Source: a virus
Taxonomy: Duplodnaviria; Heunggongvirae; Uroviricota; Caudoviricetes
Length of the DNA stretch: 20,376 nucleotides
IMG/VR virus record: IMGVR_UViG_2877973648_000005
Location: 1 to 20,376 of that record
Reading direction: 5' to 3' (one strand)
Positions within the stretch are counted from its first letter, which is position 1, and each line of letters opens with the position of its first letter. The notes beneath the pieces were generated by a model. The model searched no databases. It saw only the letters and a program-made list of their open reading frames with translations, and was not told the origin of the DNA. Shown piece by piece: positions 568 through 19,046 of the stretch. Position numbers and translations under genes: made by a program.

Positions 568-582
568 TTAGTATAAAAAAGC
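568..582. other. attR core (lambda att 15-bp common core, reverse complement of GCTTTTTTATACTAA) with B' arm gctcaag to its left
   Basis: ttagtataaaaaagc at 568-582 is identical to the core at 19032-19046 and in the same orientation; flanked on the left by CTTGAGCGAAACG-type attB sequence. Confidence 0.85.
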
Positions 583-899
583 TGAACGCGAAACATTAAA
601 AACCATTAATATCAATGTGTTACAATATCTTTAGTCTAAAAAATAGACTACATGATGCTACAAAACACAACATATCCAGTCACTATGAATCAACTACTTA
701 GATAGTATTAGTGACCTGAGACAGAGCATTAGCGCAAGGTGATTTTTGTCTTCTTGCGCTAATTTTTTGTTATCAAACATGTCGCACTCCAGAGAAGCAC
801 AAAGCCTTGCAATCCAGTGCAAAGATTTGTGTGCCTCAGTTTTGTCTAAGTGTTCTACTGAAAACATAGTAAAATCGGCAACAGCTGGAAATCATTCAA
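583..899. other. Prophage right-end remnant: diverged lambda-like attP P arm plus ~180 bp of b-region DNA, ending at the IS1 junction
   Basis: Reverse complement resembles the lambda P-arm sequence (CTGTTACAGGTCACTAATAC...CATAGTGACTGGATATGTTGTGTTTT) with substitutions; no ORF. Confidence 0.7.
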
Positions 900-914
900 G
901 GTAATGACTCCAAC

Positions 915-1418
915 TTATTGATAGTGTTTTATGTTCAGATAATGCCCGATGACTTTGTCATGCAGCTCCACCGATTTTGAGAACGACAGCGACTTCCGTC
1001 CCAGCCGTGCCAGGTGCTGCCTCAGATTCAGGTTATGCCGCTCAATTCGCTGCGTATATCGCTTGCTGATTACGTGCAGCTTTCCCTTCAGGCGGGATTC
1101 ATACAGCGGCCAGCCATCCGTCATCCATATCACCACGTCAAAGGGTGACAGCAGGCTCATAAGACGCCCCAGCGTCGCCATAGTGCGTTCACCGAATACG
1201 TGCGCAACAACCGTCTTCCGGAGACTGTCATACGCGTAAAACAGCCAGCGCTGGCGCGATTTAGCCCCGACGTATCCCCACTGTTCGTCCATTTCCGCGC
1301 AGACGATGACGTCACTGCCCGGCTGTATGCGCGAGGTTACCGACTGCGGCCTGAGTTTTTTAAGTGACGTAAAATCGTGTTGAGGCCAACGCCCATAATG
1401 CGGGCTGTTGCCCGGCAT
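915..1418 (-). CDS. insB: IS1 InsB frame (expressed as InsAB' by -1 frameshift)
   Basis: 167-aa ORF overlapping insA in the -1 frame, as in canonical IS1. Confidence 0.88.
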
Positions 1419-1612
1419 CCAACGCCATTCATGGCCATATCAATGATTTTCTGGTGCGTACCGGGTTGAGAAGCGGTGTAAGTGAACTGCAGTTGCCATG
1501 TTTTACGGCAGTGAGAGCAGAGATAGCGCTGATGTCCGGCGGTGCTTTTGCCGTTACGCACCACCCCGTCAGTAGCTGAACAGGAGGGACAGCTGATAGA
1601 AACAGAAGCCAC
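1337..1612 (-). CDS. insA: IS1 InsA (transposition repressor / N-terminal part of the InsAB' transposase)
   Basis: 91-aa [46 protein letters not shown]..., the canonical IS1 InsA. Confidence 0.92.
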
Positions 1613-1699
1613 TGGAGCACCTCAAAAACACCATCATACACTAAATCAGTAAGTTGGCAGCATCACCTTCAATCCGCATGAATTTAAAAAAGACAATTT

Positions 1700-1737
1700 T
1701 TAGAAATAAGCCGGATAAAAAAATAGCTTTATCCGGC
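1700..1737 (-). terminator. Rho-independent terminator downstream of corA
   Basis: Dyad GCCGGATAAA / TTTATCCGGC followed on the minus strand by a T-rich tract, immediately after the corA stop. Confidence 0.55.
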
Positions 1738-1744
1738 ACTCATA

Positions 1745-2695
1745 TTACAACCAGTTCTTCCGCTTAAAGTACAGATACGGTGCCAGGCCCGCGAGGATCA
1801 TAAAGATAATCGCGGCAGGGTAGCCGAAGCTCCACTTCAGTTCTGGCATAAACTCAAAGTTCATGCCATAGCTGGAAGCAACGAGCGTCGGCGGCAGGAA
1901 TACCACGGATACCACCGAGAAGATTTTGATGATGCGGTTCTGCTCGATGTTGATAAAACCCATTGCCGCCTGCATCAGGAAGTTCACCTTCTGGAACAGG
2001 GATTCGTTATGCGGCAGCAGGGATTCGATATCTCGCAGGATTTCACGCGCCTGCTCCAGTTGCCCACCCGGTAAACGCGCTTTACGCACCAGGAAGTTGA
2101 GCGCGCGCTGGGTATCCATCAGACACAGGCGAACTTTCCAGCCGATATCTTCCAGTTCCGCCAGAGTGGAGAGCGCCTCGTCGTACTCATCGCCCTGATG
2201 CCCTTCCATAATCACCCGGCTCAACTGCTCCAGGTCGCTATAGATATTTTCAATTTCATCTGCCAACTGTTCGATTTTGGTTTCGAACAGATCCAGCAGC
2301 AACTCGTAGGCGTTACCGTCTACCATCGACTGGCTACGGGCACGCATACGATACAGACGAAAAGCGGGCAGTTCACGCTCACGCAGAGTAAACAGACGAC
2401 CATCACGGATGGTAAATGCCACAGTGGAGTTACCGGCGTGATCTTCCGCATCTTCAAAGAAGAAGAAGGAGTGAATATGCAGGCCGTCGTCGTCTTCAAA
2501 GAAACGTGCCGATGCTTCGATGTCTTCCAGTTCCGGGCGGGTTGCCAGGCTCTGGCCAAGTTCAGATTGTAAGCGCAGTCGCTCGTCGTCGTCCGGTTCG
2601 ACAAGATCAATCCATACTGCATTTACAAGGGGTTGTGACTCTTCGACTTCCAGCCGGGTCAGTCGGTTATTTTCCAGTTGAAATGCGCTCAGCAT
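1745..2695 (-). CDS. corA: CorA magnesium/cobalt transporter (316 aa, GMN motif)
   Basis: Translation [20 protein letters not shown]...[18 protein letters not shown]...KRKNWL matches E. coli CorA. The ORF track's upstream Met adds 5 codons; the native start is taken as 2695. Confidence 0.9.
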
Positions 2696-3064
2696 GACCG
2701 GGACTCCCAATGCTTAAAATATCGGACAGTTCGGTGGGCACACAGAAACAAATTGGGTTTCAGACCATTAAACAGCCTGACTCAGCGCGACGGGAAAAAT
2801 TGAGGTCGCTGACAACCGCTAAGGCTATCAGCAAAAAGGGATAGCCTTAGGAGTTGATCCTGGATGACAGGATAGTGAGCCAGTATCTACTGGGTGTGTC
2901 CAAGGCGAATGTCCTCTTAGAGTGATCGTGCGCGCATGTTACGCCAGCAAAATTTTGCCGTCAACACGCAACAGAACACCACAGAACAATAGTTGAACTT
3001 CGCGCTTTTTGGTACTCGTCAAGGTCGCTAACAGGATAAAAAAATCCCACATCCAGGACCTATA

Positions 3065-3352
3065 ATGGCGCATCAGCTACTCATTGGTAAAGGAATGATC
3101 ACCTTGAATCTCAAACGGATTTTTCTCGCCCTCACCTTACTTCCCTTGTTTGCTGTTGCCGCTGATGATTGCGCACTCTCAGATCCGACGCTGACCGTAC
3201 AGGCGTATACCGTTAATCCTCAAACAGAGCGGGTGAAAATGTACTGGCAAAAAGCCAATGGCGAAGCGTGGGGAACGTTACATGCTCTGCTGGCGGATAT
3301 TAATAGTCAGGGTCAGGTGCAGATGGCGATGAACGGCGGCATCTATGATGAA
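3065..3352 (+). pseudogene. 5' fragment of a signal-peptide protein gene divergent from corA (possibly yigE), truncated by the IS1 junction
   Basis: ORF with a signal-peptide-like N-terminus (MITLNLKRIFLALTLLPLFAVAA) runs directly into the IS1 inverted repeat at 3353; its last 9 codons in the ORF track (GDAANLLI) are encoded by IS1. The yigE assignment is from remembered K-12 gene order only. Confidence 0.5.
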
Positions 3353-3407
3353 GGTGATGCTGCCAACTTACTGATTTAGTGTATGATGGTGTTTTTGAGG
3401 TGCTCCA

Positions 3408-3683
3408 GTGGCTTCTGTTTCTATCAGCTGTCCCTCCTGTTCAGCTACTGACGGGGTGGTGCGTAACGGCAAAAGCACCGCCGGACATCAGCGCTATCTC
3501 TGCTCTCACTGCCGTAAAACATGGCAACTGCAGTTCACTTACACCGCTTCTCAACCCGGTACGCACCAGAAAATCATTGATATGGCCATGAATGGCGTTG
3601 GATGCCGGGCAACAGCCCGCATTATGGGCGTTGGCCTCAACACGATTTTACGTCACTTAAAAAACTCAGGCCGCAGTCGGTAA
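3408..3683 (+). CDS. insA: IS1 InsA
   Basis: Identical 91-aa translation to the InsA at 1337-1612. Confidence 0.92.
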
Positions 3684-4105
3684 CCTCGCGCATACAGCCG
3701 GGCAGTGACGTCATCGTCTGCGCGGAAATGGACGAACAGTGGGGATACGTCGGGGCTAAATCGCGCCAGCGCTGGCTGTTTTACGCGTATGACAGTCTCC
3801 GGAAGACGGTTGTTGCGCACGTATTCGGTGAACGCACTATGGCGACGCTGGGGCGTCTTATGAGCCTGCTGTCACCCTTTGACGTGGTGATATGGATGAC
3901 GGATGGCTGGCCGCTGTATGAATCCCGCCTGAAGGGAAAGCTGCACGTAATCAGCAAGCGATATACGCAGCGAATTGAGCGGCATAACCTGAATCTGAGG
4001 CAGCACCTGGCACGGCTGGGACGGAAGTCGCTGTCGTTCTCAAAATCGGTGGAGCTGCATGACAAAGTCATCGGGCATTATCTGAACATAAAACACTATC
4101 AATAA
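3602..4105 (+). CDS. insB: IS1 InsB frame
   Basis: Identical 167-aa translation to the InsB at 915-1418. Confidence 0.88.
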
Positions 4106-4120
4106 GTTGGAGTCATTACC

Positions 4121-4325
4121 GTTTTTTGGCCCCTTCTATGGTGGCTATAATGTAATCAAACTGGATGATGAGTATAAGTATGCTCTTGTCAGTGGTCCGA
4201 ACAGAGAATACCTATGGATTCTGGCAAGGACCCCAACTATTCCAGATAAAGTAAAAGCAGACTATGTGCGAACCGCTCAAAAGTTGGGATTCAATGTCAA
4301 TGAATTATTATGGGTTAAACAATAA
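4121..4325 (+). pseudogene. 3' fragment of a lipocalin (Blc-like outer-membrane lipoprotein) gene, truncated at the IS1 junction
   Basis: FFGPFYGGYNVIKLDDEYKYALVSGPNREYLWILARTPTIPDKVK...LLWVKQ resembles the C-terminal third of E. coli Blc (FFGPFYGGYNVIALDREYRHALVCGPDRDYLWILSRTP...) but is clearly diverged; there is no start codon outside IS1. Confidence 0.7.
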
Positions 4326-4353
4326 AATCCCTACCCGAAATAATACTTATTAG

Positions 4354-4382
4354 AAAAAAACCAGCCTTTGGGGAGGCTGGCT
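4354..4382 (-). terminator. Rho-independent terminator downstream of Q (tR'-like)
   Basis: Stem CCAGCC / GGCTGG with an 8-nt loop; on the minus strand it is followed by seven T. Confidence 0.6.
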
Positions 4383-4480
4383 AAATCAGGAAACAAGCTG
4401 TTATATGATAATAACTACGTTGCGATTCCAACATTTAAAATGTTAGACTAATGACAATCAGACAGCAACTTTTCCTTTAA

Positions 4481-4873
4481 TTATTTCGAACAATCAGCAT
4501 CCATCTCCAATCGGAGAACCAACACCATCAGCATACCCTCCACTACGCCCTCAGCTTTCTGAAGCATCCTGCCAACCCAACAATCAGATCGCCCATGCTT
4601 ACGTGCAAGCGCCATAAAAGTCATGCCGCCGACATAATAGTCCACCAATAAATCATGCAAATCGCTGTTGTTCTTTTTCAGACGGGCCATGCACCCGCAA
4701 ATGATCATCGCGTCATCGTCACAACATTGTGGGCGAGATTTTACTTTTGAAGGAATTAATCCCTTAAAACCGGCGGCAATGGACGACCAGGTCACATCTT
4801 CATGATTATTAGCCGCCCACGCTCCCCAACGCTCAAGAACCATCTGAATATCACGCATCAACTTACTCCACAA
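4481..4873 (-). CDS. Late-gene antiterminator Q, short QuuD-like type
   Basis: Position (last gene of the nin region, upstream of a terminated short leader) and size/sequence resembling the DLP12 QuuD class of Q proteins; the native start may be the internal Met (MRDIQ...). Confidence 0.7.
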
Positions 4874-4943
4874 AACTCAGACCAGAACGCCAATTACAAG
4901 CAAAAATCAACAAAACAGTATTAGTTGATTGTTATCTCTGACT

Positions 4944-5084
4944 TCATACTCCTGCTCCTGTCAGTGTTTTGGCGTAATTCTTCAGTATTCGGTAATCGGT
5001 CAAAACAGAACCGGGGAAACGATATAAGCGCAGACGCCCCCAGCGGTGGCGAAGAAGTTCTGCCATATTAAACTCAAACATCAT
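4944..5084 (-). CDS. Small YlcG-like protein (46 aa)
   Basis: Sub-threshold [49 protein letters not shown] whose start overlaps the rusA stop, as in the DLP12 rusA-ylcG-quuD arrangement. Confidence 0.45.
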
Positions 5085-5443
5085 TCATTCCCCATTTCGG
5101 TGATGGTCAGTTCCAGCCTCCCACCTTTGGTAACAGGCATCTTCACAACGCGGTAATCAACGACCTGAGCATCATCCAGCCAGAAACCTGCTTTAGTGAG
5201 TGCGTCAAAAGCGGCTTTTTGCAGATTATCCAGGTCACGGCGACGGCGATCCGGCATGTGGCACTCAATGCGGATTTTCACAGGCATAGCCAGGCCGATA
5301 TCTAGCATTGCGTTTTTAATGATTCGGGCGACGTTATCGCGGTATGCCTGCCCCTCTGCGCTGATGTGCGTGCGTCCGCGATTATGGCGGTAATAGCGAT
5401 TATTGCTCGGAGGCCAGGGTAATGTGATGCTGTAGGTATTCAC
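5081..5443 (-). CDS. rusA: RusA Holliday-junction resolvase
   Basis: 120-aa translation matches E. coli/DLP12 RusA ([26 protein letters not shown]...). Confidence 0.92.
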
Positions 5444-5730
5444 GCCTTAATAACCCCCTCTTTCAGCCAGATAACCTGTGTTCTCGCCATACCTTCCAGC
5501 GCGCATTCTTTTGCATATGCAGCATCGACAAAATGTGTGCGGCGGTCGATTTCGTCGTGGCAGGCAGAACATGCAATGGTGGCAATCAGGTCTGGCGGTT
5601 TGATACCGGTACCGCACAATCCAGCCAGCCGGATATGTGCCAGTACAGACGTCTCAGAATTGCCATTACATACGCCAGGGATTCTTACCTGGCATTCCCG
5701 ACCACGCGCTGCTTTTCTCAAATCAGCCAT
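5440..5730 (-). CDS. ybcO: YbcO-like prophage nuclease (DUF1364)
   Basis: 96-aa translation from [24 protein letters not shown]... matches DLP12 YbcO; the ORF-track start at 5769 is an upstream extension. Confidence 0.85.
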
Positions 5731-5893
5731 GATTCCTCCTTGCTGCCAGTCGCAACCATTTTTTATCAACCAGGCTAGCGGTATATCCGAGCAGTGTTGG
5801 TATTTCGGATGGCTTCAGCTCAGGCTTACGCTTACGACGATTTGATACTCTGTAGATGTGTCCGTTCATGACACGAATAAGCGGTGTAGCCAT
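5723..5893 (-). CDS. ninE: NinE-like protein (56 aa)
   Basis: Sub-threshold [50 protein letters not shown]...; its start overlaps the ybcN stop (TAATG) and its stop overlaps the ybcO start. Confidence 0.7.
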   Translation of the reverse strand: MATPLIRVMNGHIYRVSNRRKRKPELKPSEIPTLLGYTASLVDKKWLRLAARRNHG

Positions 5894-6348
5894 TACGCCT
5901 CCTGCTTGTCGCGGAGCAGCTGGAACTCGCAGCTCTGCGGAATAGTCAGGTGGCAGCCAATATTCATCGCCCAGGCTTCAACCTTACACAGGAAGACATA
6001 CATCTCTCCGGTATCAAGATTGGAGGTATGACGTAATGACTGAATGGTGGTGATTTCACCGGTTACGACATCAACCAGTTCTTTGGTTTCATAACCGAGA
6101 TAAGTGTGTTTGAGAGCATCTTTTACCCAAGCTGGAGTGGCGAACGTTTTACCCCTGCTGATGAGGTATTCACTGATTTCGCTGTACCACATGTGGCTGA
6201 GTGCATTCTGGGAAAGACTGCGTCTCTCGCGCCACGGTTTAAGCACCATGCGAAAGCATTTGCCGTCCTCCAGATAAGGCTGGATCTGCCGACCGATAGC
6301 GGTGAAGTTACCGCGATGCAATTTGATACCATCTTGTGGGAGGTTCAC
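5893..6348 (-). CDS. ybcN: NinB/Orf-family recombination protein (YbcN-like, 151 aa)
   Basis: [17 protein letters not shown] motif comparable to lambda NinB RSLDQNRKLW...; size and position match DLP12 ybcN. Confidence 0.78.
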
Positions 6349-6554
6349 GCTTCACCTCCGCAGAGATCAAACGCTGGATGCAAAATATCGCAGGTGCATT
6401 TCTGCATCTGTGAATGGAGAAGAGAGGTTGGATTGTATGTGCGCATAAACGTCCCCGTTTAGCGCAGAAGTCACCGAAGTTGTTCAGGCTCCGATTACTT
6501 AATTATGGCAAGTTGATTATCGCAAATCAAAGGTTTTAATTGTGCTTTATTCTT

Positions 6555-6755
6555 TCAAGCGTTTCCTTCATACCAAAGCCTATAAAGTTTTTCTTCTTCG
6601 TTTGGGTTAATAGGCTCACCATGTTTTAATTTTTCAGTGTACAAAATTGTTGAACAAATCGCGGAAGTTAATCCAGTGATCGCCATCTGCCGCAGATCGG
6701 ATTTTTGTGTCCCCCTCAACAGACGATCTCCCATCCATGTAATAATTGTATCCAT
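6555..6755 (-). CDS. Hypothetical 66-aa protein
   Basis: ORF in AT-rich DNA with a plausible RBS (aagaagg); no recognisable family. Confidence 0.35.
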   Translation of the reverse strand: MDTIITWMGDRLLRGTQKSDLRQMAITGLTSAICSTILYTEKLKHGEPINPNEEEKLYRLWYEGNA

Positions 6756-7347
6756 GCTTCAGCCCTTCTTAGTAAATAGTGTGTAGGGCGACTGAAGGAC
6801 CGAGTTTATGCTTTTTCGCATTGCTTTCAGTTAGTAGACCGGTATAGCACCGGAAACAATCCTACGGCAAATTGGTTGTCTGACCTCTCGGTTTTTCGTG
6901 CATTAACCGATACCCACTACAGTCTCGGCGAAAGCTGCACACCCCCAAGGTGTACTGGTAGCACTCGGCACAGCCTAGCGCGCCACTTTCTTCTCACTAT
7001 CCAGTCTAATTTTATCCCCTAGTCAGACACTCAGATGTAGTGCTCAGCAGCGGCATGCGGGGGAATACAAAAACTCGGACAAAATTGGGCCCTCCTTTTT
7101 GAATCACTCGCGGGGATGTAGTTATTAATACATGGGAAAAGATCTGTTTTCAAATCCAACATTATATGGTTTCAATACCACGGGGTGGCTATGTGTTTCT
7201 CATTATTATTTACAATCTACTGTAATCGCTCCGAACGCAAATGCGTCAATACTCGAATCAACTGATCATCCTGCCACGACTGAAATCTCAAATAGGCCGT
7301 TTCTCAAGTAAGAGATTTTGAATGCATTATTGGCTACTGAAATAAAA

Positions 7348-7378
7348 AACCCAGCGCAAACTGGGTTCATATGAAATT
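7348..7378 (-). terminator. Rho-independent terminator after the secreted-protein gene
   Basis: CCCAG...CTGGG stem followed by TTTTTT on the minus strand, just downstream of the stop at 7385. Confidence 0.5.
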
Positions 7379-7384
7379 TTTTTG

Positions 7385-7879
7385 TCATTTCCAATTGCAA
7401 GACTGTGAAATTTTTTCCACAACCTTATCAATCTCAGACAAGTCAAACTCAACTACTTGCATAGTTGATCCATAAGGTTCAAACCCAAAAATAGCTTTTT
7501 TATGCTTAGCCAAGGTCTTTATAAATTGTATTGGTTGTGGAGCAAATGCAGAATCACCGCCTTCCCCACCTCCCCAAACACTCTTGACCGGCTTTCCGCC
7601 ATCTAACCGCACTGTAATTCTTGGGTTGTCCGAACCCATATAATCATTGAATGATAAATAGGCATCTGTTTTGTTATCACTACAACGCAACACCAGTGAA
7701 GTTGCACGATCAGTACCTGCTTTGTTATATGAATCTGGTGATAAATTAAGAGCCACAAAGTCAGTCTGGTCAGTCATTTTATTTATCTCAGACTTTGTTA
7801 TCCACGGCCCTAACTTCTCTACACCAGCATTTGCTGTAAACGAGGCACTTATAACAAAGGCTAAAATAAATTTTCTCAT
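7385..7879 (-). CDS. Hypothetical secreted protein (164 aa) with Sec signal peptide; moron in the ren/ninA position
   Basis: N-terminus MRKFILAFVISASFTANA is a signal peptide; strong RBS aaggaga; AT-rich codon usage distinct from flanking lambda genes; own terminator. Confidence 0.65.
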   Translation of the reverse strand: MRKFILAFVISASFTANAGVEKLGPWITKSEINKMTDQTDFVALNLSPDSYNKAGTDRATSLVLRCSDNKTDAYLSFNDYMGSDNPRITVRLDGGKPVKSVWGGGEGGDSAFAPQPIQFIKTLAKHKKAIFGFEPYGSTMQVVEFDLSEIDKVVEKISQSCNWK

Positions 7880-8025
7880 AACCCTATCTCCTTGGATTCA
7901 AAGAACTAAATATTATCAAGTCTCTTGCCACTAGAAAACCCACTTTATTTCCAAACTCTGATGGCATTCCTGAAAATCCGCTTCATACTCACTTGCCCCG
8001 CCCTATCATCCTGAGTAGCTAACCG

Positions 8026-8199
8026 TTAAACAAACGTTCGCCAGACCTTACCATCAATGACCAGGATTCCTGCCCGCGTCATTTTTGCCGCAGCCTTATT
8101 TATGCTGGTTAATGTCACACCTGTTGTCGCAGCAACGTCCGGCGCACAGAAGCTCTTGTGCGTCTCCAGATAATGAATAATTGCCTCTTTGCCCGTCAT
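8026..8199 (-). pseudogene. ren: Truncated ren (57 codons; first ~55 residues Ren-like)
   Basis: MTGKEAIIHYLETHKSFCAPDVAATTGVTLTSINKAAAKMTRAGILVIDGKVWRT matches the lambda Ren N-terminus, then diverges to a stop; the ATG overlaps the P stop (ATGA) as in lambda. Confidence 0.65.
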
Positions 8200-8897
8200 A
8201 CAGTTGCTCCTTTCAGTCCGAACTTCGCTTTGATTTCTGCGATCTTCGCCAGAGCCTGAGCCCGGTTAAGTGGTCTACCGCCCATGACAGGAAGTTGTTT
8301 TACTGGTTCAGGTATAGCCTCACCACGGTTAATTCGTGCGGTCATACAGGACAGTTCATCGGCAGCCTTGCGCCGTAATTCCGCGTCAGTCAACGCATTG
8401 GCCCGCATGTTCTGATACAGGTTGGTAACCAGCCAGTAGTGCGCGTTTGATTTCCACGGATAAGACTCTGCATCCGGATACAGCCCGCGCTTCCGGCAAT
8501 ACTCGTAAACCATATCAACCAGCTCGCTGGCGTTTGGCAGCCCGGCGGTAACGGATGCTTCTTCCCGGCACCAGGCGACAAACTGCCCGGGTGATGGCAG
8601 GAATGGTCGATTCTGCCGACGGGCTACGCGCATTCCAGCGTTAACCTGTTCCATTGTGGTGATCCCGTTTTCCCGAAAAGCCAGCACCCACTGGCGGCGG
8701 ATTTCGTTCAGTTCATTCTGGTCACGGTTAGCCAGGCTCGCCGGGAAAGTTGCCAGTAACTGGCTGAACACACCGTTGATGATCTGCGCTACCTGCTGTA
8801 CCTGCGGCTTTTCGTCGTACTGTTCCGGCATGTTGTTGGCGATCCGACGCATCTGCTCACGGTCAAAGTTAACCATCTGTGCGGCGATGTTTTTCAT
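8196..8897 (-). CDS. P: Replication protein P (DnaB helicase loader)
   Basis: 233-aa translation nearly identical to lambda P (MKNIAAQMVNFDREQMRRIANNMPEQYDEKPQVQQ...). Confidence 0.95.
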   Translation of the reverse strand: MKNIAAQMVNFDREQMRRIANNMPEQYDEKPQVQQVAQIINGVFSQLLATFPASLANRDQNELNEIRRQWVLAFRENGITTMEQVNAGMRVARRQNRPFLPSPGQFVAWCREEASVTAGLPNASELVDMVYEYCRKRGLYPDAESYPWKSNAHYWLVTNLYQNMRANALTDAELRRKAADELSCMTARINRGEAIPEPVKQLPVMGGRPLNRAQALAKIAEIKAKFGLKGATV

Positions 8898-10749: not shown

Positions 10750-10853
10750 AACAACCTCCGTGGTTAATTTGAATCAAGATTAAAACTATGGTTGTTTTTA
10801 GTCAACAACCATTTTCGTTTGATGGAATAAAACCTTGGTTGTACATTTGGACT
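10750..10853. promoter_or_regulatory. OR/pR/pRM divergent control region
   Basis: Intergenic between divergent cro and cI; contains the 17-bp palindrome AAAACTATGGTTGTTTT (10782-10798), related to a site in the OL region. Confidence 0.6.
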
Positions 10854-11543
10854 ATGAAAACAACACTCTCAGAAAGACTTAAAGAAGCCAGATTAGCGCG
10901 AGGCCTTACACAAAAGGCGCTTGGGGATTTGGTCGGGGTTAGCCAGGCTGCTATTCAGAAAATCGAAACAGGGAAAGCTAATCAAACAACTAAAATCGTG
11001 GAGATCGCGAACGCTTTGGGTGTGCGCGCAGAATGGTTATCTTCTGGCGTTGGAAATATGTCAGACAGTACAGTGCAACCAATACAATCAACTGTCAGCC
11101 ATTCCAAATACTTCAAGATTGACGTTCTTGATATAGAAGTCAGTGCTGGGCCGGGAGTCATCAACCGTGAGTTTGTAGAAGTTCTACGCTCGGTTGAGTA
11201 CTCGTTTGACGATGCTCGTCACATGTTCGATGGTAGGAAGGCGGAAAATATCCGCATCATTAACGTGCGTGGTGACAGCATGTCAGGAACGATCGAACCA
11301 GGTGATCTGCTGTTCGTTGATATCACAGTTAAATCTTTCGACGGTGATGGTATCTATGCGTTTCTGTACGACGACACAGCCCATGTAAAGCGCCTGCAAA
11401 TGATGAAGGATAAGCTGCTGGTCATCTCTGATAACAAAAGCTACTCACCGTGGGACCCGATCGAGAAAGACGAGATGAACCGGGTGTTCATCTTCGGTAA
11501 GGTTATTGGGAGCATGCCGCAGACATATAGGAAGCATGGGTAG
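10854..11543 (+). CDS. cI: CI prophage repressor (N-terminal HTH, C-terminal S24 LexA-like autopeptidase)
   Basis: HTH LTQKALGDLVGVSQAAIQKIETGK; the C-terminal domain has the GDSM serine motif and a downstream Lys (HVKRLQ). Start placed at MKTTLSERL (apparently leaderless, as for lambda pRM), because the ORF-track start at 10788 would lie within the operator region. Confidence 0.85.
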   Translation: MKTTLSERLKEARLARGLTQKALGDLVGVSQAAIQKIETGKANQTTKIVEIANALGVRAEWLSSGVGNMSDSTVQPIQSTVSHSKYFKIDVLDIEVSAGPGVINREFVEVLRSVEYSFDDARHMFDGRKAENIRIINVRGDSMSGTIEPGDLLFVDITVKSFDGDGIYAFLYDDTAHVKRLQMMKDKLLVISDNKSYSPWDPIEKDEMNRVFIFGKVIGSMPQTYRKHG

Positions 11544-11664
11544 TACCAATTAAAAATTATCAACTGGGCATTGTGCTCATTCAGTAAAGAACTAATTCCT
11601 ATCTTTGCTCTAGGTAGTAATATTAAGCCACCGCAATAATATCTTTACCTAACGGCGTAAGAAT

Positions 11665-11690
11665 CCCGGTCACCGTGCCGGGTTTTCTTT
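11665..11690 (+). terminator. Rho-independent terminator after cI
   Basis: CCCGGT / GCCGGG stem followed by TTTTCTTTT. Confidence 0.55.
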
Positions 11691-11799
11691 TGCCCTCCCC
11701 TCATCACACACACCGTTAAAAAAACCACCATAACCTCGCTTCAGTTATCGCTATGCGATTCAAGTCACAAAATAAATCCATCCTAAATACAACCAGTTA

Positions 11800-11870
11800 T
11801 ATCTAAAACAACCAATAAAACAACTTTTGTTGTTGACGATAAAACAACTATAGTTTTAAATAAGTTCATC
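11800..11870. promoter_or_regulatory. OL/pL-like region
   Basis: AT-rich segment with TTGACG (-35-like) and the palindromes CAACTTTTGTTG and AAAACAACTATAGTTTT (11841-11857), the latter differing by one base from the reverse complement of the OR site. Confidence 0.5.
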
Positions 11871-12054
11871 GCAACAACACAACGATACGGCAACTACCTG
11901 ATTCACCGTTGCGATGACCGCTTAGATCCGCAGTTTGAATTTCAGCAGGCTTCGGGGAGTGCGAGGGGTGAAACGGACGCGTGAACGTCGGTGTGACCAG
12001 CTGAAATTAACTCAACATTTCATACCTCAGTCGCTTCAACGAGGCGGCTTAGTT

Positions 12055-12345
12055 ATGACAACCGGCGGCCATCCACCGCCTGAATATGCGCAGAAGTCTC
12101 TATATGTTCAGCAGCCCAGCTTACGGGCAGGAGTTTTTATGGTTCATCAACATTACGGAACACAGACCGTTAATCGCGGCGCGGTCATGCCAGGAATGCT
12201 GGTCAAACACAAAGATGGTACCTGGACTGCATCAGCTAATTTACGCGGACGGCTTTATCTGCATCGCGGCATCGAGCGCACTTATACCAGTGATTTGCTC
12301 GTGGAAGTTTTTCTCGACGGACGCGGTAACGGCCTGAATCACTAA
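12055..12345 (+). CDS. Hypothetical early-left protein (N/kil/cIII position)
   Basis: ORF immediately upstream of gam with a GAGG RBS; the same frame extends upstream through an Arg-rich stretch (KRTRERR) to GTG/TTG starts. Confidence 0.45.
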   Translation: MTTGGHPPPEYAQKSLYVQQPSLRAGVFMVHQHYGTQTVNRGAVMPGMLVKHKDGTWTASANLRGRLYLHRGIERTYTSDLLVEVFLDGRGNGLNH

Positions 12346-12421
12346 CCCCCCTTTCCTGTTTTCCTAATCAGCCTGGCATTTCGCGGGCGATATTTTCACA
12401 GCCATTTTCAGGAGTTCAGCC

Positions 12422-12718
12422 ATGAACGCTTATTACATTCAGGATCGTCTTGAGGCTCAGAGCTGGGCGCGTCACTACCAGCAGCTCGCCCGTGAAGAGA
12501 AAGAGGCAGAACTGGCAGACGACATGGAAAAAAGCCTGCCCCAGCACCTGTTTGAATCGCTATGCATCGATCATTTGCAACGCCACGGGGCCAGCAAAAA
12601 AGCCATTACCCGTGCGTTTGATGACGATGTTGAGTTTCAGGAGCGCATGGCAGAACACATCCGGTACATGGTTGAAACCATTGCTCACCACCAGGTTGAT
12701 ATTGATTCAGAGGTATAA
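12422..12718 (+). CDS. gam: Gam, RecBCD inhibitor
   Basis: Translation [37 protein letters not shown]... matches lambda Gam (short form). Confidence 0.95.
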
Positions 12719-12723
12719 AACGG

Positions 12724-13509
12724 ATGAGTACAGCACTCGCAACGCTGGCTGGGAAGCTGGCTGAACGTGTCGGCATGGATTCTGTCGACCCACAGGAACT
12801 GATCACCACTCTTCGCCAGACGGCATTTAAAGGTGATGCCAGCGATGCGCAGTTCATCGCATTGTTGATCGTCGCCAACCAGTACGGCCTTAATCCGTGG
12901 ACGAAAGAAATTTACGCCTTCCCTGACAAGCAGAACGGCATCGTTCCGGTGGTGGGCGTTGATGGCTGGTCCCGTATCATCAATGAAAACCAGCAGTTTG
13001 ATGGCATGGACTTTGAGCAGGACAATGAATCATGTACATGCCGGATTTACCGCAAGGACCGTAATCATCCGATCTGCGTTACCGAGTGGATGGATGAATG
13101 CCGCCGCGAACCATTCAAAACCCGCGAAGGCAGAGAAATCACGGGGCCGTGGCAGTCGCATCCCAAACGGATGTTACGGCATAAAGCCATGATTCAGTGT
13201 GCCCGTCTCGCCTTCGGATTTGCTGGTATCTATGACAAGGATGAAGCCGAGCGCATTGTCGAAAATACCGCATACACTGCAGAACGTCAGCCGGAACGCG
13301 ACATCACTCCGGTTAACGATGAAACCATGCAGGAGATTAACACTCTGCTGATCGCCCTGGATAAAACATGGGATGACGACTTATTGCCGCTCTGTTCCCA
13401 GATATTTCGCCGCGACATTCGCGCATCGTCAGAACTGACACAGGCCGAAGCAGTGAAAGCTCTTGGATTCCTGAAACAGAAAGCCACTGAGCAGAAGGTG
13501 GCAGCATGA
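12724..13509 (+). CDS. bet: Bet (Red-beta) single-strand annealing protein
   Basis: 261-aa translation essentially identical to lambda Bet. Confidence 0.97.
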
Positions 13510-14186
13510 CACCGGACATTATCCTGCAGCGTACCGGGATCGACGTGAGAGCTGTCGAACAGGGGGATGATGCATGGCACAAATTACGGCTCGGCGTCAT
13601 CACCGCTTCAGAAGTTCACAACGTGATAGCAAAGCCCCGCTCAGGAAAGAAGTGGCCTGACATGAAAATGTCCTACTTCCACACCCTGCTGGCTGAGGTT
13701 TGCACCGGTGTGGCTCCGGAAGTTAATGCTAAGGCGCTGGCCTGGGGAAAACAGTACGAGAACGACGCCAGAACCCTGTTTGAATTCACTTCCGGCGTGA
13801 ATATTACTGAATCCCCGATCATCTATCGCGACGAAAATATGCGCACCGCCTGCTCTCCCGATGGTTTATGCAGTGACGGCAACGGCCTTGAACTGAAATG
13901 CCCGTTTACCTCCCGGGATTTCATGAAATTCCGGCTCGGTGGTTTCGAGGCAATAAAATCGGCTTACATGGCCCAGGTGCAGTACAGCATGTGGGTGACG
14001 CGAAAAGATGCCTGGTACTTTGCCAACTATGACCCGCGCATGAAGCGTGAAGGCCTGCATTATGTCGTGATTGAGCGGAATGAAAAGTACATGGCGAGTT
14101 TTGACGAGATGGTGCCGGAGTTCATCGAAAAAATGGACGAGGCACTGGCTGAAATTGGTTTTGTATTTGGGGAGCAATGGCGATGA
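13506..14186 (+). CDS. exo: Exo (Red-alpha) 5'-3' exonuclease
   Basis: 226-aa translation essentially identical to lambda Exo; start overlaps the bet stop. Confidence 0.97.
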
Positions 14187-14365
14187 CGCATCCTCACGAT
14201 AATATCCGGGTAGGCGCGATCACTTTCGTCTACTCCGTTACAAAGCGAGGCTGGGTATTTCCCGGCCTTTCTGTTATCCAAAATCCACTGAAAGCCCAGC
14301 GGCTGGCTGAGGAGATAAATAATAAACGAGGGGCTGTATGCACAAAGCATCTCCCGTTGAGTTAA
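14177..14365 (+). CDS. lambda orf60a-like protein
   Basis: [31 protein letters not shown]... matches lambda orf60a. Confidence 0.75.
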
Positions 14366-14529
14366 GAACGAGTATCGAGATGGCACATAGCCTCGCTCAA
14401 ATTGGAGTCAGGTTTGTGCCAATACCAGTAGAAACAGACGAAGAATTTCACACGTTAGCCGCATCCCTTTCACAAAAGCTGGAAATGATGGTGGCGAAAG
14501 CAGAAGCAGATGAGAGAGACCAGGTATGA
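14338..14529 (+). CDS. lambda orf63-like protein
   Basis: [37 protein letters not shown]... matches lambda orf63. Confidence 0.75.
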   Translation: MHKASPVELRTSIEMAHSLAQIGVRFVPIPVETDEEFHTLAASLSQKLEMMVAKAEADERDQV

Positions 14530-14605
14530 CAACCACTGAATGCATTTTTCTGGCAGCGGGCTTCATATTCTGTGTGCTTATGCTTGCCGACATGGGACTT
14601 GTTCA

Positions 14606-14821
14606 ATGACACCTCAGCAGGAAAACGCCCTTCGCAGCATTGCCCGTCAGGCTAATTCTGAAATCAAAAAAGCCAGACAGCAGTTTCCGGATAAAAACGT
14701 CGATGACATTTGCCGTAGCGTACTGAAGAAGCACCGCGAAACGGTAACGCTGATGGGATTCACACCGACTCATTTAAGCCTGGCAATCGGCATGTTAAAC
14801 GGCGTCTTTAAGGAACGATGA
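14606..14821 (+). CDS. lambda orf61-like protein
   Basis: MTPQQENALRSIARQANSEIKKARQQFPDKNVDDICRS... matches lambda orf61; the ORF-track start at 14540 is an upstream extension. Confidence 0.7.
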   Translation: MTPQQENALRSIARQANSEIKKARQQFPDKNVDDICRSVLKKHRETVTLMGFTPTHLSLAIGMLNGVFKER

Positions 14822-14919
14822 ACATGAAAAGCAAAATCATCAGGGAGCTACAGGCTCCTTTTTTATTATTCGCATTCACCCTCAAGCGTATTAACCAACA
14901 ATTCAGGGATTAATGGAAG

Positions 14920-15141
14920 ATGGCAGACATCATTGATTCAGCATCAGAAATTGAAGAATTACAGCGCAACACAGCAATAAAAATGCGCCGCCTGAACCAC
15001 CAGGCTATATCTGCCACTCATTGTTGTGAGTGTGGCGATCCGATAGATGAACGAAGACGCCTGGTCGTTCAGGGTTGTCGGACTTGTGCAAGTTGCCAGG
15101 AAGATCTGGAGCTTATCAGTAAACAGAGAGGTTCGAAGTGA
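14920..15141 (+). CDS. TraR/DksA-family C4 zinc-finger protein (lambda orf73-like)
   Basis: CCECGDPIDERRRLVVQGCRTCASCQ four-Cys motif. Confidence 0.7.
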   Translation: MADIIDSASEIEELQRNTAIKMRRLNHQAISATHCCECGDPIDERRRLVVQGCRTCASCQEDLELISKQRGSK

Positions 15142-15449
15142 GCGAAATTAACTCTCAGGCACTGCGTGAAGCGGCAGAGCAGGCAATGCATGACGACTGG
15201 GGATTTGACGCAGACCTTTTCCATGAATTGGTAACACCATCGATTGTGCTGGAACTGCTGGAACTGCTGGATGAGCGGGAAAGAAACCAGCAATACATCA
15301 AACGCCGCGACCAGGAGAACGAGGAAATTGCGCTAACGGTAGGAAAGCTGCGCGTTGAGCTGGAAGCAGCAAAATCAAAACTCAACGAGCAGCGTGAATA
15401 TTACGAAGGTGTTATCTCGGATGGAAGTAAGCGTATTGCTGAACTGTAG
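15138..15449 (+). pseudogene. ea22: Truncated ea22 (N-terminal 103 codons only)
   Basis: MSEINSQALREAAEQAMHDDWGFDADLFHELVTPSIVLELL... matches the start of lambda Ea22 (182 aa in lambda); it ends where the AT-rich island begins. Confidence 0.65.
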
Positions 15450-15699
15450 GCCTAGGTTGAGTGTACAAGATTTGCATACGTAAGAGCAAAAGACAAGGGA
15501 GAATTGATCAGAGTTATTACCTGCCAACCAACGGGATATTACGCTTACGTACCATGTAACTAGGAATCCTTGAAGTGGCAGCCTAACTGTGGATACACTG
15601 AAATGGCGATTTGGTAACATGTTTCGCACAAGGCTGTTACTACGCTTAGAGATAATCAGTCATGATTAAATGCTTTGTAAAAAGTAAAAGGAAATTACA

Positions 15700-16314
15700 A
15701 TGAAAAAATCAACACTAATTTTAGGGCTTACGTTAATTGTCTCATCTCAAATACCATCGGCAATGGCAAAAAATGAATCAAAACTTTGGGTTGTTGTTGA
15801 TCGAACGGAAAGACATACCTGCCCTTCAAGTAAATGTGGAGTGGCTGGGAAACTATTTTTCAGGGAAGGCGTAGATTTTCTAGAAAAAAAAGGTGAATGG
15901 GTTCGTATAACTGAGCCATATTCAGCCTCATGTGTGGGAGGGGAAAGCGAATATATTAAAGAAGGTAATAAATCCTGCACAAGAAAAAACGGAATCGTTA
16001 ATGGCAAGTTTTCAGAATGGGTTAAACTTAGTGATCTTAGCAGTGAAAGGCCATCAGATCCTGCTGAAAATGCGAGCAGAAATGATACCTTAATCAAAGG
16101 ATCTGATGACTACCGTATATACAAAAAAGAGTTTTCTTCGGCAGCTAGGAAGTTAATAAGTGAAGGTGTCTGCACGGAGAGCGATTTTAAGGAAGTTGGA
16201 GGGTGGATGGCATCAAGCAATAAGGGTGAAAACATCTATTTCACATATTGCGGAGGAATGACGTTGTCGAACAGAATATATCTAGACGTTAAAAGTGGAA
16301 AGACTTTTAGATAA
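15700..16314 (+). CDS. Hypothetical secreted Cys-rich protein (204 aa), cargo gene
   Basis: Signal peptide MKKSTLILGLTLIVSSQIPSAMA; AAGGA RBS; six Cys in the mature part; very AT-rich relative to the prophage backbone. Confidence 0.65.
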   Translation: MKKSTLILGLTLIVSSQIPSAMAKNESKLWVVVDRTERHTCPSSKCGVAGKLFFREGVDFLEKKGEWVRITEPYSASCVGGESEYIKEGNKSCTRKNGIVNGKFSEWVKLSDLSSERPSDPAENASRNDTLIKGSDDYRIYKKEFSSAARKLISEGVCTESDFKEVGGWMASSNKGENIYFTYCGGMTLSNRIYLDVKSGKTFR

Positions 16315-16607
16315 TATGATATTACCAATGACAGCATTAATTTAATGCCTCCATAGAATTATCTCTAGGAAGTAAGTATAAGAAAAGTCCGCACAATGAG
16401 CTGCTGCGGGCTTTGTGTTATTCGCCATATTTTATGAAGCAAATACGACACTATAGATAATTAAGCGTTACTGGTTGTCGATTCCTCACTCATTCCTGCT
16501 GATGGCTGTCTTCTTGTATGTGTCATTGAAGGGTAATATCGCGTAAAAAGATACCGGAAGTATCCGCGCCGCCATGATTGTCTTTCTCCTGATGCAGGAA
16601 AAGCAGA

Positions 16608-16946
16608 ATGACTAAATCAGCAGCAGAGCGCAAAGCCGATCAGAGAGCCAAGCAAGCATCATCCGGTATGCGTAAGCTGGAGCTTGTACTTGATGCTCAG
16701 GAAATTGAAATGCTGGAGCGTAACTGAGCCACGCGCCGCTTCAGGCGTGCGCCTTACGAGTTTGGTGAGTACATAGCGTTACTGAGCCGCCAGGATGATG
16801 CACGTGTGCGCTGGCGTATAAAATCGATTAGCAGAAAACGTTGCCGTAAGTGCGGCGAGAAAGTTCCTGTTAATTCATGCCCGTGTAATGGTGACTCACA
16901 ATACTGGGTGACCAAAGGCTGGCACGAAACAAAATTAATGATATAA
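16608..16946 (+). pseudogene. Zinc-ribbon small protein gene interrupted by an in-frame TGA (39 codons, TGA at 16725-16727, then 72 more sense codons)
   Basis: AGGAAAAG RBS before the ATG at 16608; the same frame continues after the TGA to a TAA at 16944-16946 and encodes CRKCGEKVPVNSCPCNG. Neither half alone reaches 60 aa. Confidence 0.4.
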
Positions 16947-16974
16947 ATCTCTGTGACATGTCACGGAGGCGGCA

Positions 16975-17403
16975 ATGAAATTAGACCAGCAATATCTAAA
17001 AGATCTACTTATCGCATTCGAAAAAACTTATGGCCCTGACACGATGCTTAGTGAACTAGAGGATAATGGCTTTAATAGATATGACCAAAATTTTATTTTC
17101 CATATGCGATTATTATGTGACTACGAATTAATAGTTAGGGTTGATGGAAAACCTGGGTTCGGTCATATAATGTCCAACGAGTTAGGGGAAGGTGTTGAAT
17201 ATAGTTGGATCGAAGTACCACTGAGGTTGACAGCAAGAGGGCATGATTTTATTGCTGACTTACGTCAAAAGGAGGTCTGGCAAGCTATAAAAACAAACTT
17301 TAAGGATGAGGGGATTAGTACTCTTATGAGTGTTTCAAAATCACTAGCAAAAGGCTTTGCAAGAAAAAAAATAAAAGATATTACAGGAATAGATATTGAA
17401 TAA
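16975..17403 (+). CDS. Hypothetical cytoplasmic protein (142 aa), cargo gene
   Basis: Strong GGAGG RBS; AT-rich; followed by a terminator; no recognisable family from sequence alone. Confidence 0.65.
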   Translation: MKLDQQYLKDLLIAFEKTYGPDTMLSELEDNGFNRYDQNFIFHMRLLCDYELIVRVDGKPGFGHIMSNELGEGVEYSWIEVPLRLTARGHDFIADLRQKEVWQAIKTNFKDEGISTLMSVSKSLAKGFARKKIKDITGIDIE

Positions 17404-17448
17404 TTCTTAGCATAAAGCAACTACTGCCTTTGGTGAAAATTATATCTG

Positions 17449-17471
17449 AACTCGCTACGGCGAGTTTTTTT
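17449..17471 (+). terminator. Rho-independent terminator after the 142-aa gene
   Basis: CTCGC-TACG-GCGAG hairpin followed by TTTTTTT. Confidence 0.6.
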
Positions 17472-17511
17472 ATGGAGATGATAAATGCACTTCCGAGTCA
17501 CAGGTGAATAG

Positions 17512-17652
17512 AATGGAGAACCATTCAACAGAGTTATCGAAGCCGAGAACATCAGCGACTGCTATGACCACTGGATGCTGTGGGCGCAGATAGCACATGC
17601 AGACGTAACCAATATTCGAATTGAAGAACTGAAAGAACACCAAGCCGCCTGA
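17512..17652 (+). pseudogene. Start-less 3' remnant of an Ea8.5-like gene
   Basis: 46 sense codons (...ISDCYDHWMLWAQIAHADVTNIRIEELKEHQAA*) bounded upstream by TAG with no initiation codon; lies where lambda ea8.5 sits relative to xis. The Ea8.5 assignment is from position and memory only. Confidence 0.4.
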
Positions 17653-17665
17653 TGGCGGTTTTTTC
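17644..17665 (+). terminator. Rho-independent terminator upstream of xis
   Basis: CCGCC-TGAT-GGCGG hairpin followed by TTTTTT. Confidence 0.5.
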
Positions 17666-17691
17666 TTGCGTGTAATTGCGGAGACTTTGCG

Positions 17692-17910
17692 ATGTACTTG
17701 ACACTTCAAGAGTGGAACGCTCGCCAGCGACGCCCAAGAAGCCTTGAAACAGTTCGTCGATGGGTGCGCGAATGCAGGATATTCCCTCCTCCGGTTAAGG
17801 ATGGAAGAGAATATCTGTTCCACGAATCAGCGGTAAAGGTTGACTTAAATCGACCAGTAACAGGTAGCCTTTTGAAGAGGATCAGAAATGGGAAGAAGGC
17901 GAAGTCATGA
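17692..17910 (+). CDS. xis: Xis excisionase
   Basis: MYLTLQEWNARQRRPRSLETVRRWVRECRIFPPPVKDGREYLFHESAVK... matches lambda Xis; overlaps the int start. Confidence 0.95.
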   Translation: MYLTLQEWNARQRRPRSLETVRRWVRECRIFPPPVKDGREYLFHESAVKVDLNRPVTGSLLKRIRNGKKAKS

Positions 17911-18958
17911 GCGCCGGGATTTACCCCCTAACCTTTATATAAGAAACAATGGATATTACTGCTACAGGGACCCAAGGACGGGTAAAGAGTTTGGATTAGG
18001 CCGAGACAGGCGAATCGCAATCACTGAAGCTATACAGGCCAACATTGAGTTATTTTCAGGACACAAACACAAGCCTCTGACAGCGAGAATCAACAGTGAT
18101 AATTCCGTTACGTTACATTCATGGCTTGATCGCTACGAAAAAATCCTGGCCAGCAGAGGAATCAAGCAGAAGACACTCATAAATTACATGAGCAAAATTA
18201 AAGCAATAAGGAGGGGTCTGCCTGATGCTCCACTTGAAGACATCACCACAAAAGAAATTGCGGCAATGCTCAATGGATACATAGACGAGGGCAAGGCGGC
18301 GTCAGCCAAGTTAATCAGATCAACACTGAGCGATGCATTCCGAGAGGCAATAGCTGAAGGCCATATAACAACAAACCCTGTCGCTGCCACTCGCGCAGCA
18401 AAATCAGAGGTAAGGAGATCAAGACTTACGGCTGACGAATACCTGAAAATTTATCAAGCAGCAGAATCATCACCATGTTGGCTCAGACTTGCAATGGAAC
18501 TGGCTGTTGTTACCGGGCAACGAGTTGGTGATTTATGCGAAATGAAGTGGTCTGATATCGTAGATGGATATCTTTATGTCGAGCAAAGCAAAACAGGCGT
18601 AAAAATTGCCATCCCAACAGCATTGCATGTTGATGCTCTCGGAATATCAATGAAGGAAACACTTGATAAATGCAAAGAGATTCTTGGCGGAGAAACCATA
18701 ATTGCATCTACTCGTCGCGAACCGCTTTCATCCGGCACAGTATCAAGGTATTTTATGCGCGCACGAAAAGCATCAGGTCTTTCCTTCGAAGGGGATCCGC
18801 CTACCTTTCACGAGTTGCGCAGTTTGTCTGCAAGACTCTATGAGAAGCAGATAAGCGATAAGTTTGCTCAACATCTTCTCGGGCATAAGTCGGACACCAT
18901 GGCATCACAGTATCGTGATGACAGAGGCAGGGAGTGGGACAAAATTGAAATCAAATAA
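17888..18958 (+). CDS. int: Int, lambda-type tyrosine integrase (356 aa)
   Basis: Translation essentially identical to lambda Int (MGRRRSHERRDLPPNLYIRNNGYYCYRDPRTGKEFGLGRDRR...). Intact, so this is not a DE3-type int disruption. Confidence 0.97.
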   Translation: MGRRRSHERRDLPPNLYIRNNGYYCYRDPRTGKEFGLGRDRRIAITEAIQANIELFSGHKHKPLTARINSDNSVTLHSWLDRYEKILASRGIKQKTLINYMSKIKAIRRGLPDAPLEDITTKEIAAMLNGYIDEGKAASAKLIRSTLSDAFREAIAEGHITTNPVAATRAAKSEVRRSRLTADEYLKIYQAAESSPCWLRLAMELAVVTGQRVGDLCEMKWSDIVDGYLYVEQSKTGVKIAIPTALHVDALGISMKETLDKCKEILGGETIIASTRREPLSSGTVSRYFMRARKASGLSFEGDPPTFHELRSLSARLYEKQISDKFAQHLLGHKSDTMASQYRDDRGREWDKIEIK

Positions 18959-19046
18959 TGATTTTATTTTGACTGATAGTGACCTGTTCGTTGCAACAAA
19001 TTGATAAGCAATGCTTTTTTATAATGCCAACTTAGTATAAAAAAGC
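18959..19046. other. attL: lambda P' arm (18959-19031) plus 15-bp core (19032-19046) joined to bacterial B sequence
   Basis: Reverse complement reads ...TGAAGCCTGCTTTTTTATACTAAGTTGGCATTATAAAAAAGCATTGCTTATCAATTTGTTGCAACGAACAGGTCACTATCAGTCAAAATAAAATCATTATT, the canonical lambda core plus P' arm. Confidence 0.88.

Follow-up and report, generated by a model that had tools for sequence, protein, structure and literature searches.

Cryptic prophages serve as a reservoir of genes for recombination with incoming lambdoid phages. DLP12, one of the cryptic lambdoid prophages of Escherichia coli K-12, does not occupy the lambda attachment site, and it no longer has its Red genes or either of its functional att partners. 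At attB itself, between the host genes ybhB and ybhC, E. coli B strains carry a 12.1-kb defective prophage (PMC4395058). We analysed a stretch of 20,376 nucleotides (IMG/VR record IMGVR_UViG_2877973648_000005, positions 1 to 20,376; hereafter the window) that also holds a prophage at attB. The whole window was 100% identical to positions 3,349,656-3,370,031 of the chromosome of E. coli 1218KP, a clinical isolate from a human in the Czech Republic. The element is, in our judgement very probably, an 18,464-bp remnant of a mosaic lambdoid prophage of about 50 kb, and its history can be reconstructed by comparison with sequenced relatives. It shares with DLP12 and the other cryptic lambdoid prophages of K-12 the state of a truncated remnant, but in contrast to DLP12 it is much younger and has kept a complete early region.

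The 15-bp lambda core, GCTTTTTTATACTAA, occurs in the window exactly twice, at 568-582 and 19032-19046, where no copy is expected by chance. The original prediction had pointed to identical cores in direct orientation at these two places, and this was borne out: both are exact matches on the minus strand, and the flanks of each are those of a canonical hybrid att site. The left end reads ybhB side (B'), core and lambda-type P arm, and the right end reads P' arm, core and ybhC side (B). The arrangement is that of a lambda prophage in canonical orientation, viewed from the bio side. When the host flanks were fused through a single core, the resulting 300-bp sequence matched the uninterrupted ybhB-ybhC site of other E. 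coli at 100%; therefore, the 18,464 bp from core to core are a precise insertion at attB. The uninterrupted ybhB-attB-ybhC junction was present in 3,488 of the 5,426 complete E. coli genomes screened, and about 36% of these genomes carry something at the lambda attachment site.

The arms of the att sites were then compared with those of lambda. The P' arm matches lambda at 100%, so that the attachment site, orientation, core and P' arm are all the same as in a lambda prophage. The P arm aligns with lambda without a gap and keeps the arm-type Int sites P1 (704-723) and P2 (672-691) with their core motifs, the H1 region, the sib/tI hairpin (721-770; an inverted repeat), and an H2 site of IHF consensus. 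Its Xis/Fis region shows several substitutions, and the Xis, Fis and IHF-H2 regions are variant with respect to lambda. Among the isolated phages of the collection none carries exactly this P arm; closest is the attP of HK106, at 93.4%.

The genes whose products act on these sites were claimed to be intact, and gam-bet-exo to be intact and essentially identical to lambda; both statements hold, with the identities given in Table 1. Int, Xis and P are full length, and Int keeps all of its catalytic residues (R212, K235, H308, R311, H333 and Y342). Its two substitutions relative to lambda, H164P and I248V, are common to the Int proteins of REL606, NCTC9080 and the isolated temperate phage Chlobot, whose DNA is 97.4% identical to the window from 12339 to 19046. 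The gam, bet and exo genes are contiguous, full length (98, 261 and 226 amino acids) and free of stops, and lie in the operon of the putative pL.

Outside these regions the likeness to lambda is limited. DNA matches to the lambda reference (NC_001416) were counted by blastn at E<=1e-5, and homology was confined to the four substantial blocks listed in Table 1; a fifth match, of 40 bp at 861-899, was disregarded as weak. No homologue of lambda N, rexAB, cIII or cII was found in the window, and the immunity region, the N-terminal domain of O with its iterons, the nin region and the Q gene of lambda proper are absent from the element. Judged by this distribution of matches, it is a typical lambdoid mosaic and not a lambda derivative. 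The isolated temperate phage IdasGreatGrand (PP925829) matches window 4120-15115 with 97% DNA identity, from the lipocalin-family gene through Q, nin, P, O, immunity and kil to Red. Unlike the window element, IdasGreatGrand is a complete phage with another integrase and att site, carries two extra genes between cI and pL, and has no IS1-corA unit.

No lysis, packaging, head or tail gene is annotated in the window (PGAP annotation of the identical record), and no match to the lambda cos sequence was found in it, in agreement with the claim that everything from S through J is absent. What has been lost is evident from strain NCTC9080, where the same prophage measures 49,630 bp core to core and has complete lysis, terminase, head, tail and tail-fibre genes, together with a diguanylate-cyclase gene near attR. 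In this strain a lipocalin-family gene located between Q and the lysis cassette is interrupted by an IS1-corA transposon. Alignment places window 1-899 on NCTC9080 (L007) 9631-10529 at 99.7%, the match stopping at 899, and the window from 900 onward on 41700 onward. Exactly 31,170 bp are thus missing, from the outer end of the left IS1 to a point 317 bp from the attR core. The late genes had been described as replaced by the IS1 structure. This has to be corrected, in that the transposon already stood between Q and the lysis genes and the late genes went in a separate deletion of 31,170 bp.

A second relative, the prophage of YZB902, is colinear with window 900-15153 (99.77%, gap-free) and has lost neither its lysis and head genes nor the 5' half of the lipocalin gene. 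The backbones of the NCTC9080 and YZB902 prophages are 99.0-99.8% identical to the window, with IS1-corA-IS1 in the same lipocalin gene; their ea regions are unlike window 15154-17439, and NCTC9080 has two extra genes downstream of cI. The junction 899/900 was found in one piece only in 1218KP, AREA_C483 and TC24 among the genomes of the collection. The complete genomes of AREA_C483 and TC24 contain the whole window at 99.9-100%. These three isolates with the deleted form, of which two are human and one bovine in origin, hardly differ over the window and probably represent one clone.

Deletions that IS1 promotes in adjacent DNA, known classically from the gal region of E. coli, characteristically begin right at the end of the IS1. 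The 31-kb loss is most simply explained as an IS1-mediated adjacent deletion of this kind. In strain KH_005, an IS1B (L010 9121-9888) lies about 40 bp further in and is joined to the truncated terminase gene of a different lambdoid prophage with trkG and ompC, and IS1-linked truncation beside attR appears to recur across strains.

The IS1 structure itself consists of two 768-bp IS1A copies in inverted orientation, 100% identical to each other and complete with intact terminal repeats, their GGTAATGACTCC ends facing outward. They enclose 1,685 bp of captured E. coli chromosome (1668..3352): corA, ysgD, and a yigE cut by IS1 after its first 288 bp. Elsewhere on the 1218KP chromosome, at 4.894 Mb, an intact native corA-ysgD-yigE-uvrD locus remains, and the accession of its CorA differs from that of the transposon copy. 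Therefore, the prophage corA is a second copy in the strain, and the alternative that corA had been relocated rather than duplicated was rejected. The corA segment is present at 100% identity in the same prophage in six other genomes. Plasmids of Salmonella, Enterobacter hormaechei and E. coli carry the IS1-corA-ysgD-'yigE-IS1 unit as well, with an identity of about 99%; Salmonella plasmid R27 has part of it, and in an IncHI1B plasmid the inner junctions are exactly those of the window. Such recurrence on plasmids, at sites unrelated to the prophage and with inner junctions unchanged, makes the unit a composite transposon. Its cargo, corA, is a chromosomal housekeeping-type gene for an E. coli-type magnesium/cobalt transporter and not a resistance gene. 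In the literature searched we found no transposon name for the corA unit, only a passing mention of corA on IncHI1 plasmids.

No target duplication surrounds the unit in the window, where the flanks are atcattcaa and gttttttgg. They differ because of the later deletion; in NCTC9080 and YZB902 an 8/9-bp duplication, GTTTTTTG(G), is present on both sides of the unit. A further 21 bp, gaaaataaaatagagagagtt, at the inner end of the left IS1 are found in NCTC9080 (L006 8769-8789) and in a plasmid copy, and are absent from the window (1668-1671) and YZB902. By this comparison the difference is a small IS1-adjacent deletion older than the 31-kb one. YZB902 shares the 21-bp loss but keeps late genes, and the order of events is therefore transposon insertion, 21-bp deletion and 31-kb deletion. 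Within the window one IS1 copy does not differ from the other, both NCTC9080 copies encode one transposase protein, and the copies differ between the two strains, an indication of gene conversion within the inverted pair. In ET490 and ET979 the enclosed corA segment has the reverse orientation with respect to the prophage, which fits the recombination expected between inverted IS1 copies.

From these comparisons the following history can be reconstructed. A mosaic lambdoid phage of about 50 kb integrated at attB by means of its lambda-type Int, in the orientation canonical for lambda and with ybhB and ybhC on either side. The 3.2-kb IS1-corA-ysgD-'yigE-IS1 unit then inserted into the lipocalin-family gene between Q and the lysis cassette, generating the 8/9-bp duplication. 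Loss of 21 bp at the inner end of the left IS1 came next. The 31,170-bp deletion from the outer end of the same IS1 was the last event, and with it went all of the lipocalin gene but its 3' fragment, together with the lysis genes, cos, all head and tail genes, and b-region cargo.

Table 1. Features of the 20,376-nucleotide window, in order of position
Feature	Position	Strand	Identification and remarks
ybhB, host gene on the bio side of attB	1..477	+	PGAP annotation of identical record; open reading frame (ORF) list
Lambda block: P arm	564-835		88.6% identity
attR core (O), 15 bp	568..582	-	Exact match; B' sequence on ybhB side
P arm of attR	583..835	-	blastn and pairwise alignment with lambda 27471-27742
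Final 64 bp of b-region DNA before deletion endpoint	836..899	.	Colinear with NCTC9080 up to 899
Left IS1 (IS1A, 768 bp), outer end GGTAATGACTCC	900..1667	-	Terminal inverted repeats located; transposase with programmed frameshift annotated
corA	1745-2695	-	Annotation
ysgD	2847-2903	-	Annotation
yigE, 5' part	3065-3352	+	Annotation; cut by IS1
Right IS1 (IS1A, 768 bp)	3353..4120	+	Inverted relative to left copy
Lipocalin-family gene, 3' fragment	4121..4325	+	Original transposon target; phrog_2809, match to positions 107-174 of 174
tR'-like terminator downstream of Q	4382-4359	-	Terminator scan
Q antiterminator, 125 amino acids	4481-4858	-	PF06530, E = 1.7e-50
nin region, DLP12 type: ylcG, rusA (5081-5443), ybcO, ninE, ybcN	4944..6348	-	PGAP names
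VasI/TagO-like accessory gene, 164 amino acids	7385..7879	-	PF11319, 26.7 bits, just above cut-off; phrog_1848 (function unknown)
ren pseudogene	7931..8199	-	Frameshift and internal stops (PGAP note); two stops in translation
Lambda block: C-terminal part of O, P, ren	7955-9360		92% identity
P	8196-8897	-	228/233 identical to lambda P
O, hybrid, 339 amino acids	8894-9913	-	66.7% identical to lambda O overall
YdaT-domain protein, at cII position	9910-10449	-	Pfam
YdaS-like Cro	10519-10749	-	Pfam; 26% identical to lambda Cro
Operator/promoter region	10750-10853		Palindrome 10788-10812 at expected oR position
CI repressor, helix-turn-helix and S24 peptidase	10854-11543	+	Pfam; 23% identical to lambda CI
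Putative oL/pL	11810..11862	+	Repeated AAAACAAC operator-like motifs (direct repeat), TTGACG-18-TAAATA; function inferred from position
kil-like gene	12055-12345	+	phrog_294 Kil
Lambda block: gam to ea22	12339-15446		97.4% identity
gam, 98 amino acids (98-amino-acid form)	12422-12718	+	96/98 identical to lambda
bet	12724-13509	+	260/261 identical to lambda
exo	13506-14186	+	221/226 identical to lambda
Early-left accessory genes: orf60a, orf63, orf61-like, DksA/TraR-like, and two pseudogenes	within 14183..17652	+	Annotation, Pfam, PHROG
Truncated ea22	15138-15446	+	Annotation, Pfam, PHROG
phrog_8310 gene	15700-16314	+	Annotation, Pfam, PHROG
DUF2513 gene	16975-17403	+	Annotation, Pfam, PHROG
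Lambda block: small ORF, xis, int, P' arm	17439-19046		98.6% identity
xis	17692-17910	+	72 amino acids, 71/72 identical to lambda Xis
int	17888-18958	+	356 amino acids, 354/356 identical to lambda Int
attL: P' arm and core (core at 19032-19046)	18959..19046	-	P' arm 100% identical to lambda
ybhC, host gene on the gal side of attB	19093..20376	+	ORF list, annotation

The early region of the remnant encodes its own immunity and replication functions. CI is identical to that of IdasGreatGrand at 228 of its 229 residues, and carries Ala-Gly, GDSMS and VKRL motifs, which correspond to the cleavage site and the Ser/Lys motifs of self-cleaving repressors. The slot just 3' of cI (the place of rexAB in lambda; window 11585-11588) is one for variable cargo: neither the window nor YZB902 carries a gene in it, whereas two unrelated-looking genes occupy it both in IdasGreatGrand (358 and 125 amino acids; L004 29813-31190) and in NCTC9080 (281 and 147 amino acids; L006 18745-20048). 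The replication genes O and P, and the resolvase genes of the nin region, had been put forward as lambda-like. This stood for P. For O it applies to the C-terminal 140 or so amino acids, which are nearly identical to lambda, and not to the divergent N-terminal domain; the five 20-bp iterons (9360-9474) also differ from those of lambda, and lambda DNA homology stops at 9360. It failed for the nin region, which shows no DNA homology to lambda nin at E<=1e-5 and encodes a RusA resolvase in place of lambda Rap. The iterons of the origin, O and P are intact, and Q and the tR'-like terminator are retained.

The K-12 names ybcN, ninE, ybcO, rusA and ylcG given to the nin genes belong to DLP12. PHROG matches identified rusA as a RusA-like resolvase and ybcN as a mediator of the NinB/Orf family. 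In the protein comparison Q showed no similarity to lambda Q. PGAP places small unnamed genes between ybcN and the TagO/VasI-like gene, which itself sits between ren and the nin region; VasI is a type VI secretion accessory protein. When PADLOC defence models were run on eight accessory ORFs, this 164-amino-acid gene included, no credible match was obtained. The ren pseudogene is common to NCTC9080 and YZB902, and three further pseudogenes are annotated by PGAP among the early-left accessory genes.

We examined how transcription from pL might reach Red, xis and int. No ORF for an N gene was found from the putative pL to these genes, and the part up to kil contains no boxA. One boxA of rrn type, CGCTCTTTAACAA, directly follows the stop codon of cro on the minus strand (10494-10506). 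HK022-type put sites were considered as a substitute for N, and comparison of window 10400-12450 with HK022 20000-40751 gave no similarity except a weak match in cI. A search for a second copy of the pL leader downstream of pR produced only a weak, gapped local alignment, and Rfam at gathering thresholds returned no matches over the whole window. Terminator-like hairpins are located at 14247, 14842, 17448 and 17642, upstream of xis and int. The same N-less left-operon arrangement is found in IdasGreatGrand. That phage is functional without N, and therefore some way past the terminators must exist.

On this basis the behaviour of the remnant can be predicted. CI would silence the element and confer immunity to phages of the IdasGreatGrand type. 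Cleavage of CI in the SOS response would derepress pL and pR and turn on kil-gam-bet-exo, along with xis and int if transcription extends that far. Int and Xis, with IHF and Fis, could then excise a circle of 18.5 kb, with neither lysis of the cell nor packaging, and the second corA would be carried along as cargo of the transposon. Red, the Orf-like ybcN product and RusA would be open to recombination with incoming lambdoid phages. The original prediction that the element is in principle excisable is reasonable as far as the proteins and sites for Int/Xis excision are concerned, which are present and look intact, and excision is plausible; it is less secure in respect of expression, given the missing N gene and the terminator-like hairpins before xis and int.

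Several observations weigh against parts of the reading as a remnant of a 50-kb prophage with the history and behaviour described. With no N or boxA and four hairpins in the way, expression of int and xis after induction is not assured, and a YdaT-like protein at the cII position may leave a lambda-type pI promoter inside xis without its activator. In its Xis/Fis/IHF region the P arm, of which no isolated phage has the exact form, agrees with lambda at no more than 88.6%. Neither NCTC9080 nor YZB902, though closely related, is the direct parent; both differ from the window in the ea region (15154-17439), and NCTC9080 also in its post-cI genes. The deletion product, moreover, does not reveal its mechanism: insertion of an IS1 near attR followed by IS1-IS1 recombination gives the same junction. 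Such a two-step route, with an extra IS1 in the same orientation as the left copy and recombination between the direct copies, is possible but rather unlikely. It yields the same final structure as adjacent deletion, and an IS1 end lies within 40-320 bp of the same flank in thirteen other genomes, KH_005 with its IS1B beside a truncated terminase gene among them. The late region of YZB902 already contains a third IS1, and the 1218KP chromosome has about a dozen places matching the IS1 end of the junction query. However, across the collection an IS1 placed exactly at 899/900 was never accompanied by a late region that is still present, and the exact junction was seen only in the three deleted genomes. 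The original prediction had allowed that genome context might reveal a cloning or assembly artefact, and IS1-like repeats can mislead assemblers; but three independent complete genomes contain the whole window with the exact junction in one piece, and the att junctions are exactly as Int-mediated integration predicts, so that the chance of an artefact is close to nil. Descent from the E. coli B lineage, as its lambda-B prophage or a direct derivative, is very improbable. It is correct that B strains carry a prophage at attB, as cited above, and lambda-B (REL606, BL21) has the same site, the same int/xis type and the form of a short defective remnant; the Xis accession of REL606 is identical and its Int differs at one residue. 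When the comparison with REL606 at ybhC-ybhB that had been proposed as a check was run (775-825 kb of that genome), the match was confined to window 1-770 and 17440-20376, that is, to ybhB, attR and the P arm at one end and to xis, int, attL and ybhC at the other. The interior is entirely different: between ybhC and ybhB the REL606 prophage has lysC, terminase, tail-fibre assembly and acyltransferase genes, and it lacks Red, O/P, the immunity region and the IS1-corA unit. With only the att/int/xis ends in common, and the window 100% identical to the human isolate 1218KP, an E. coli B origin was ruled out for the window.

Two further readings concern why the remnant persists. It might be kept by selection as a domesticated island giving immunity, recombination functions and an extra Mg/Co/Ni transporter. 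The retained early genes of known role are all intact, pseudogenes being found only among accessory genes; the deleted form was recovered from both humans and cattle; and the spread of the corA unit to plasmids of several genera marks it as possibly useful cargo. Against this, remnant and full-length YZB902 prophage share 99.8% identity, which points to a recent deletion, after which intact genes are expected without selection. The three near-identical carriers probably amount to a single clone, and retained kil and O/P-ori are potentially harmful upon induction, judging from lambda biology. We regard maintenance by selection as unlikely. A more elaborate version, for which we see a slim chance, holds that the locus is an SOS-inducible mini-element equipped with att sites, Int/Xis, ori-O-P, CI, Red, an Orf-like protein, RusA and a mobile corA, which would excise and replicate as an 18.5-kb circle and be kept for the benefit of the host, and whose left operon, shared with IdasGreatGrand, would reach Red, xis and int without N or a recognisable nut or put site. 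If this were true, such a left operon would represent an undescribed way of passing lambda-type terminators.

We return to the reading of the locus as an IS1-truncated remnant of a mosaic lambdoid prophage. Its components are each well known, namely lambda-type att/Int/Xis, Red, mosaic early regions, IS1 transposons and IS1-linked deletions, and in the literature searched we found no publication naming this remnant. As an ordinary defective prophage of the lambda family, it has little significance beyond bookkeeping. It does provide a clean, datable example of insertion sequences turning a complete temperate phage into a cryptic remnant, with the intermediate stages all preserved in sequenced relatives. 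Strains of the clone have, besides a second, transposon-borne corA of a kind known on plasmids too, chromosomal Red and CI genes, with possible effects on recombineering, on how infecting lambdoid phages recombine, and on susceptibility to phage.

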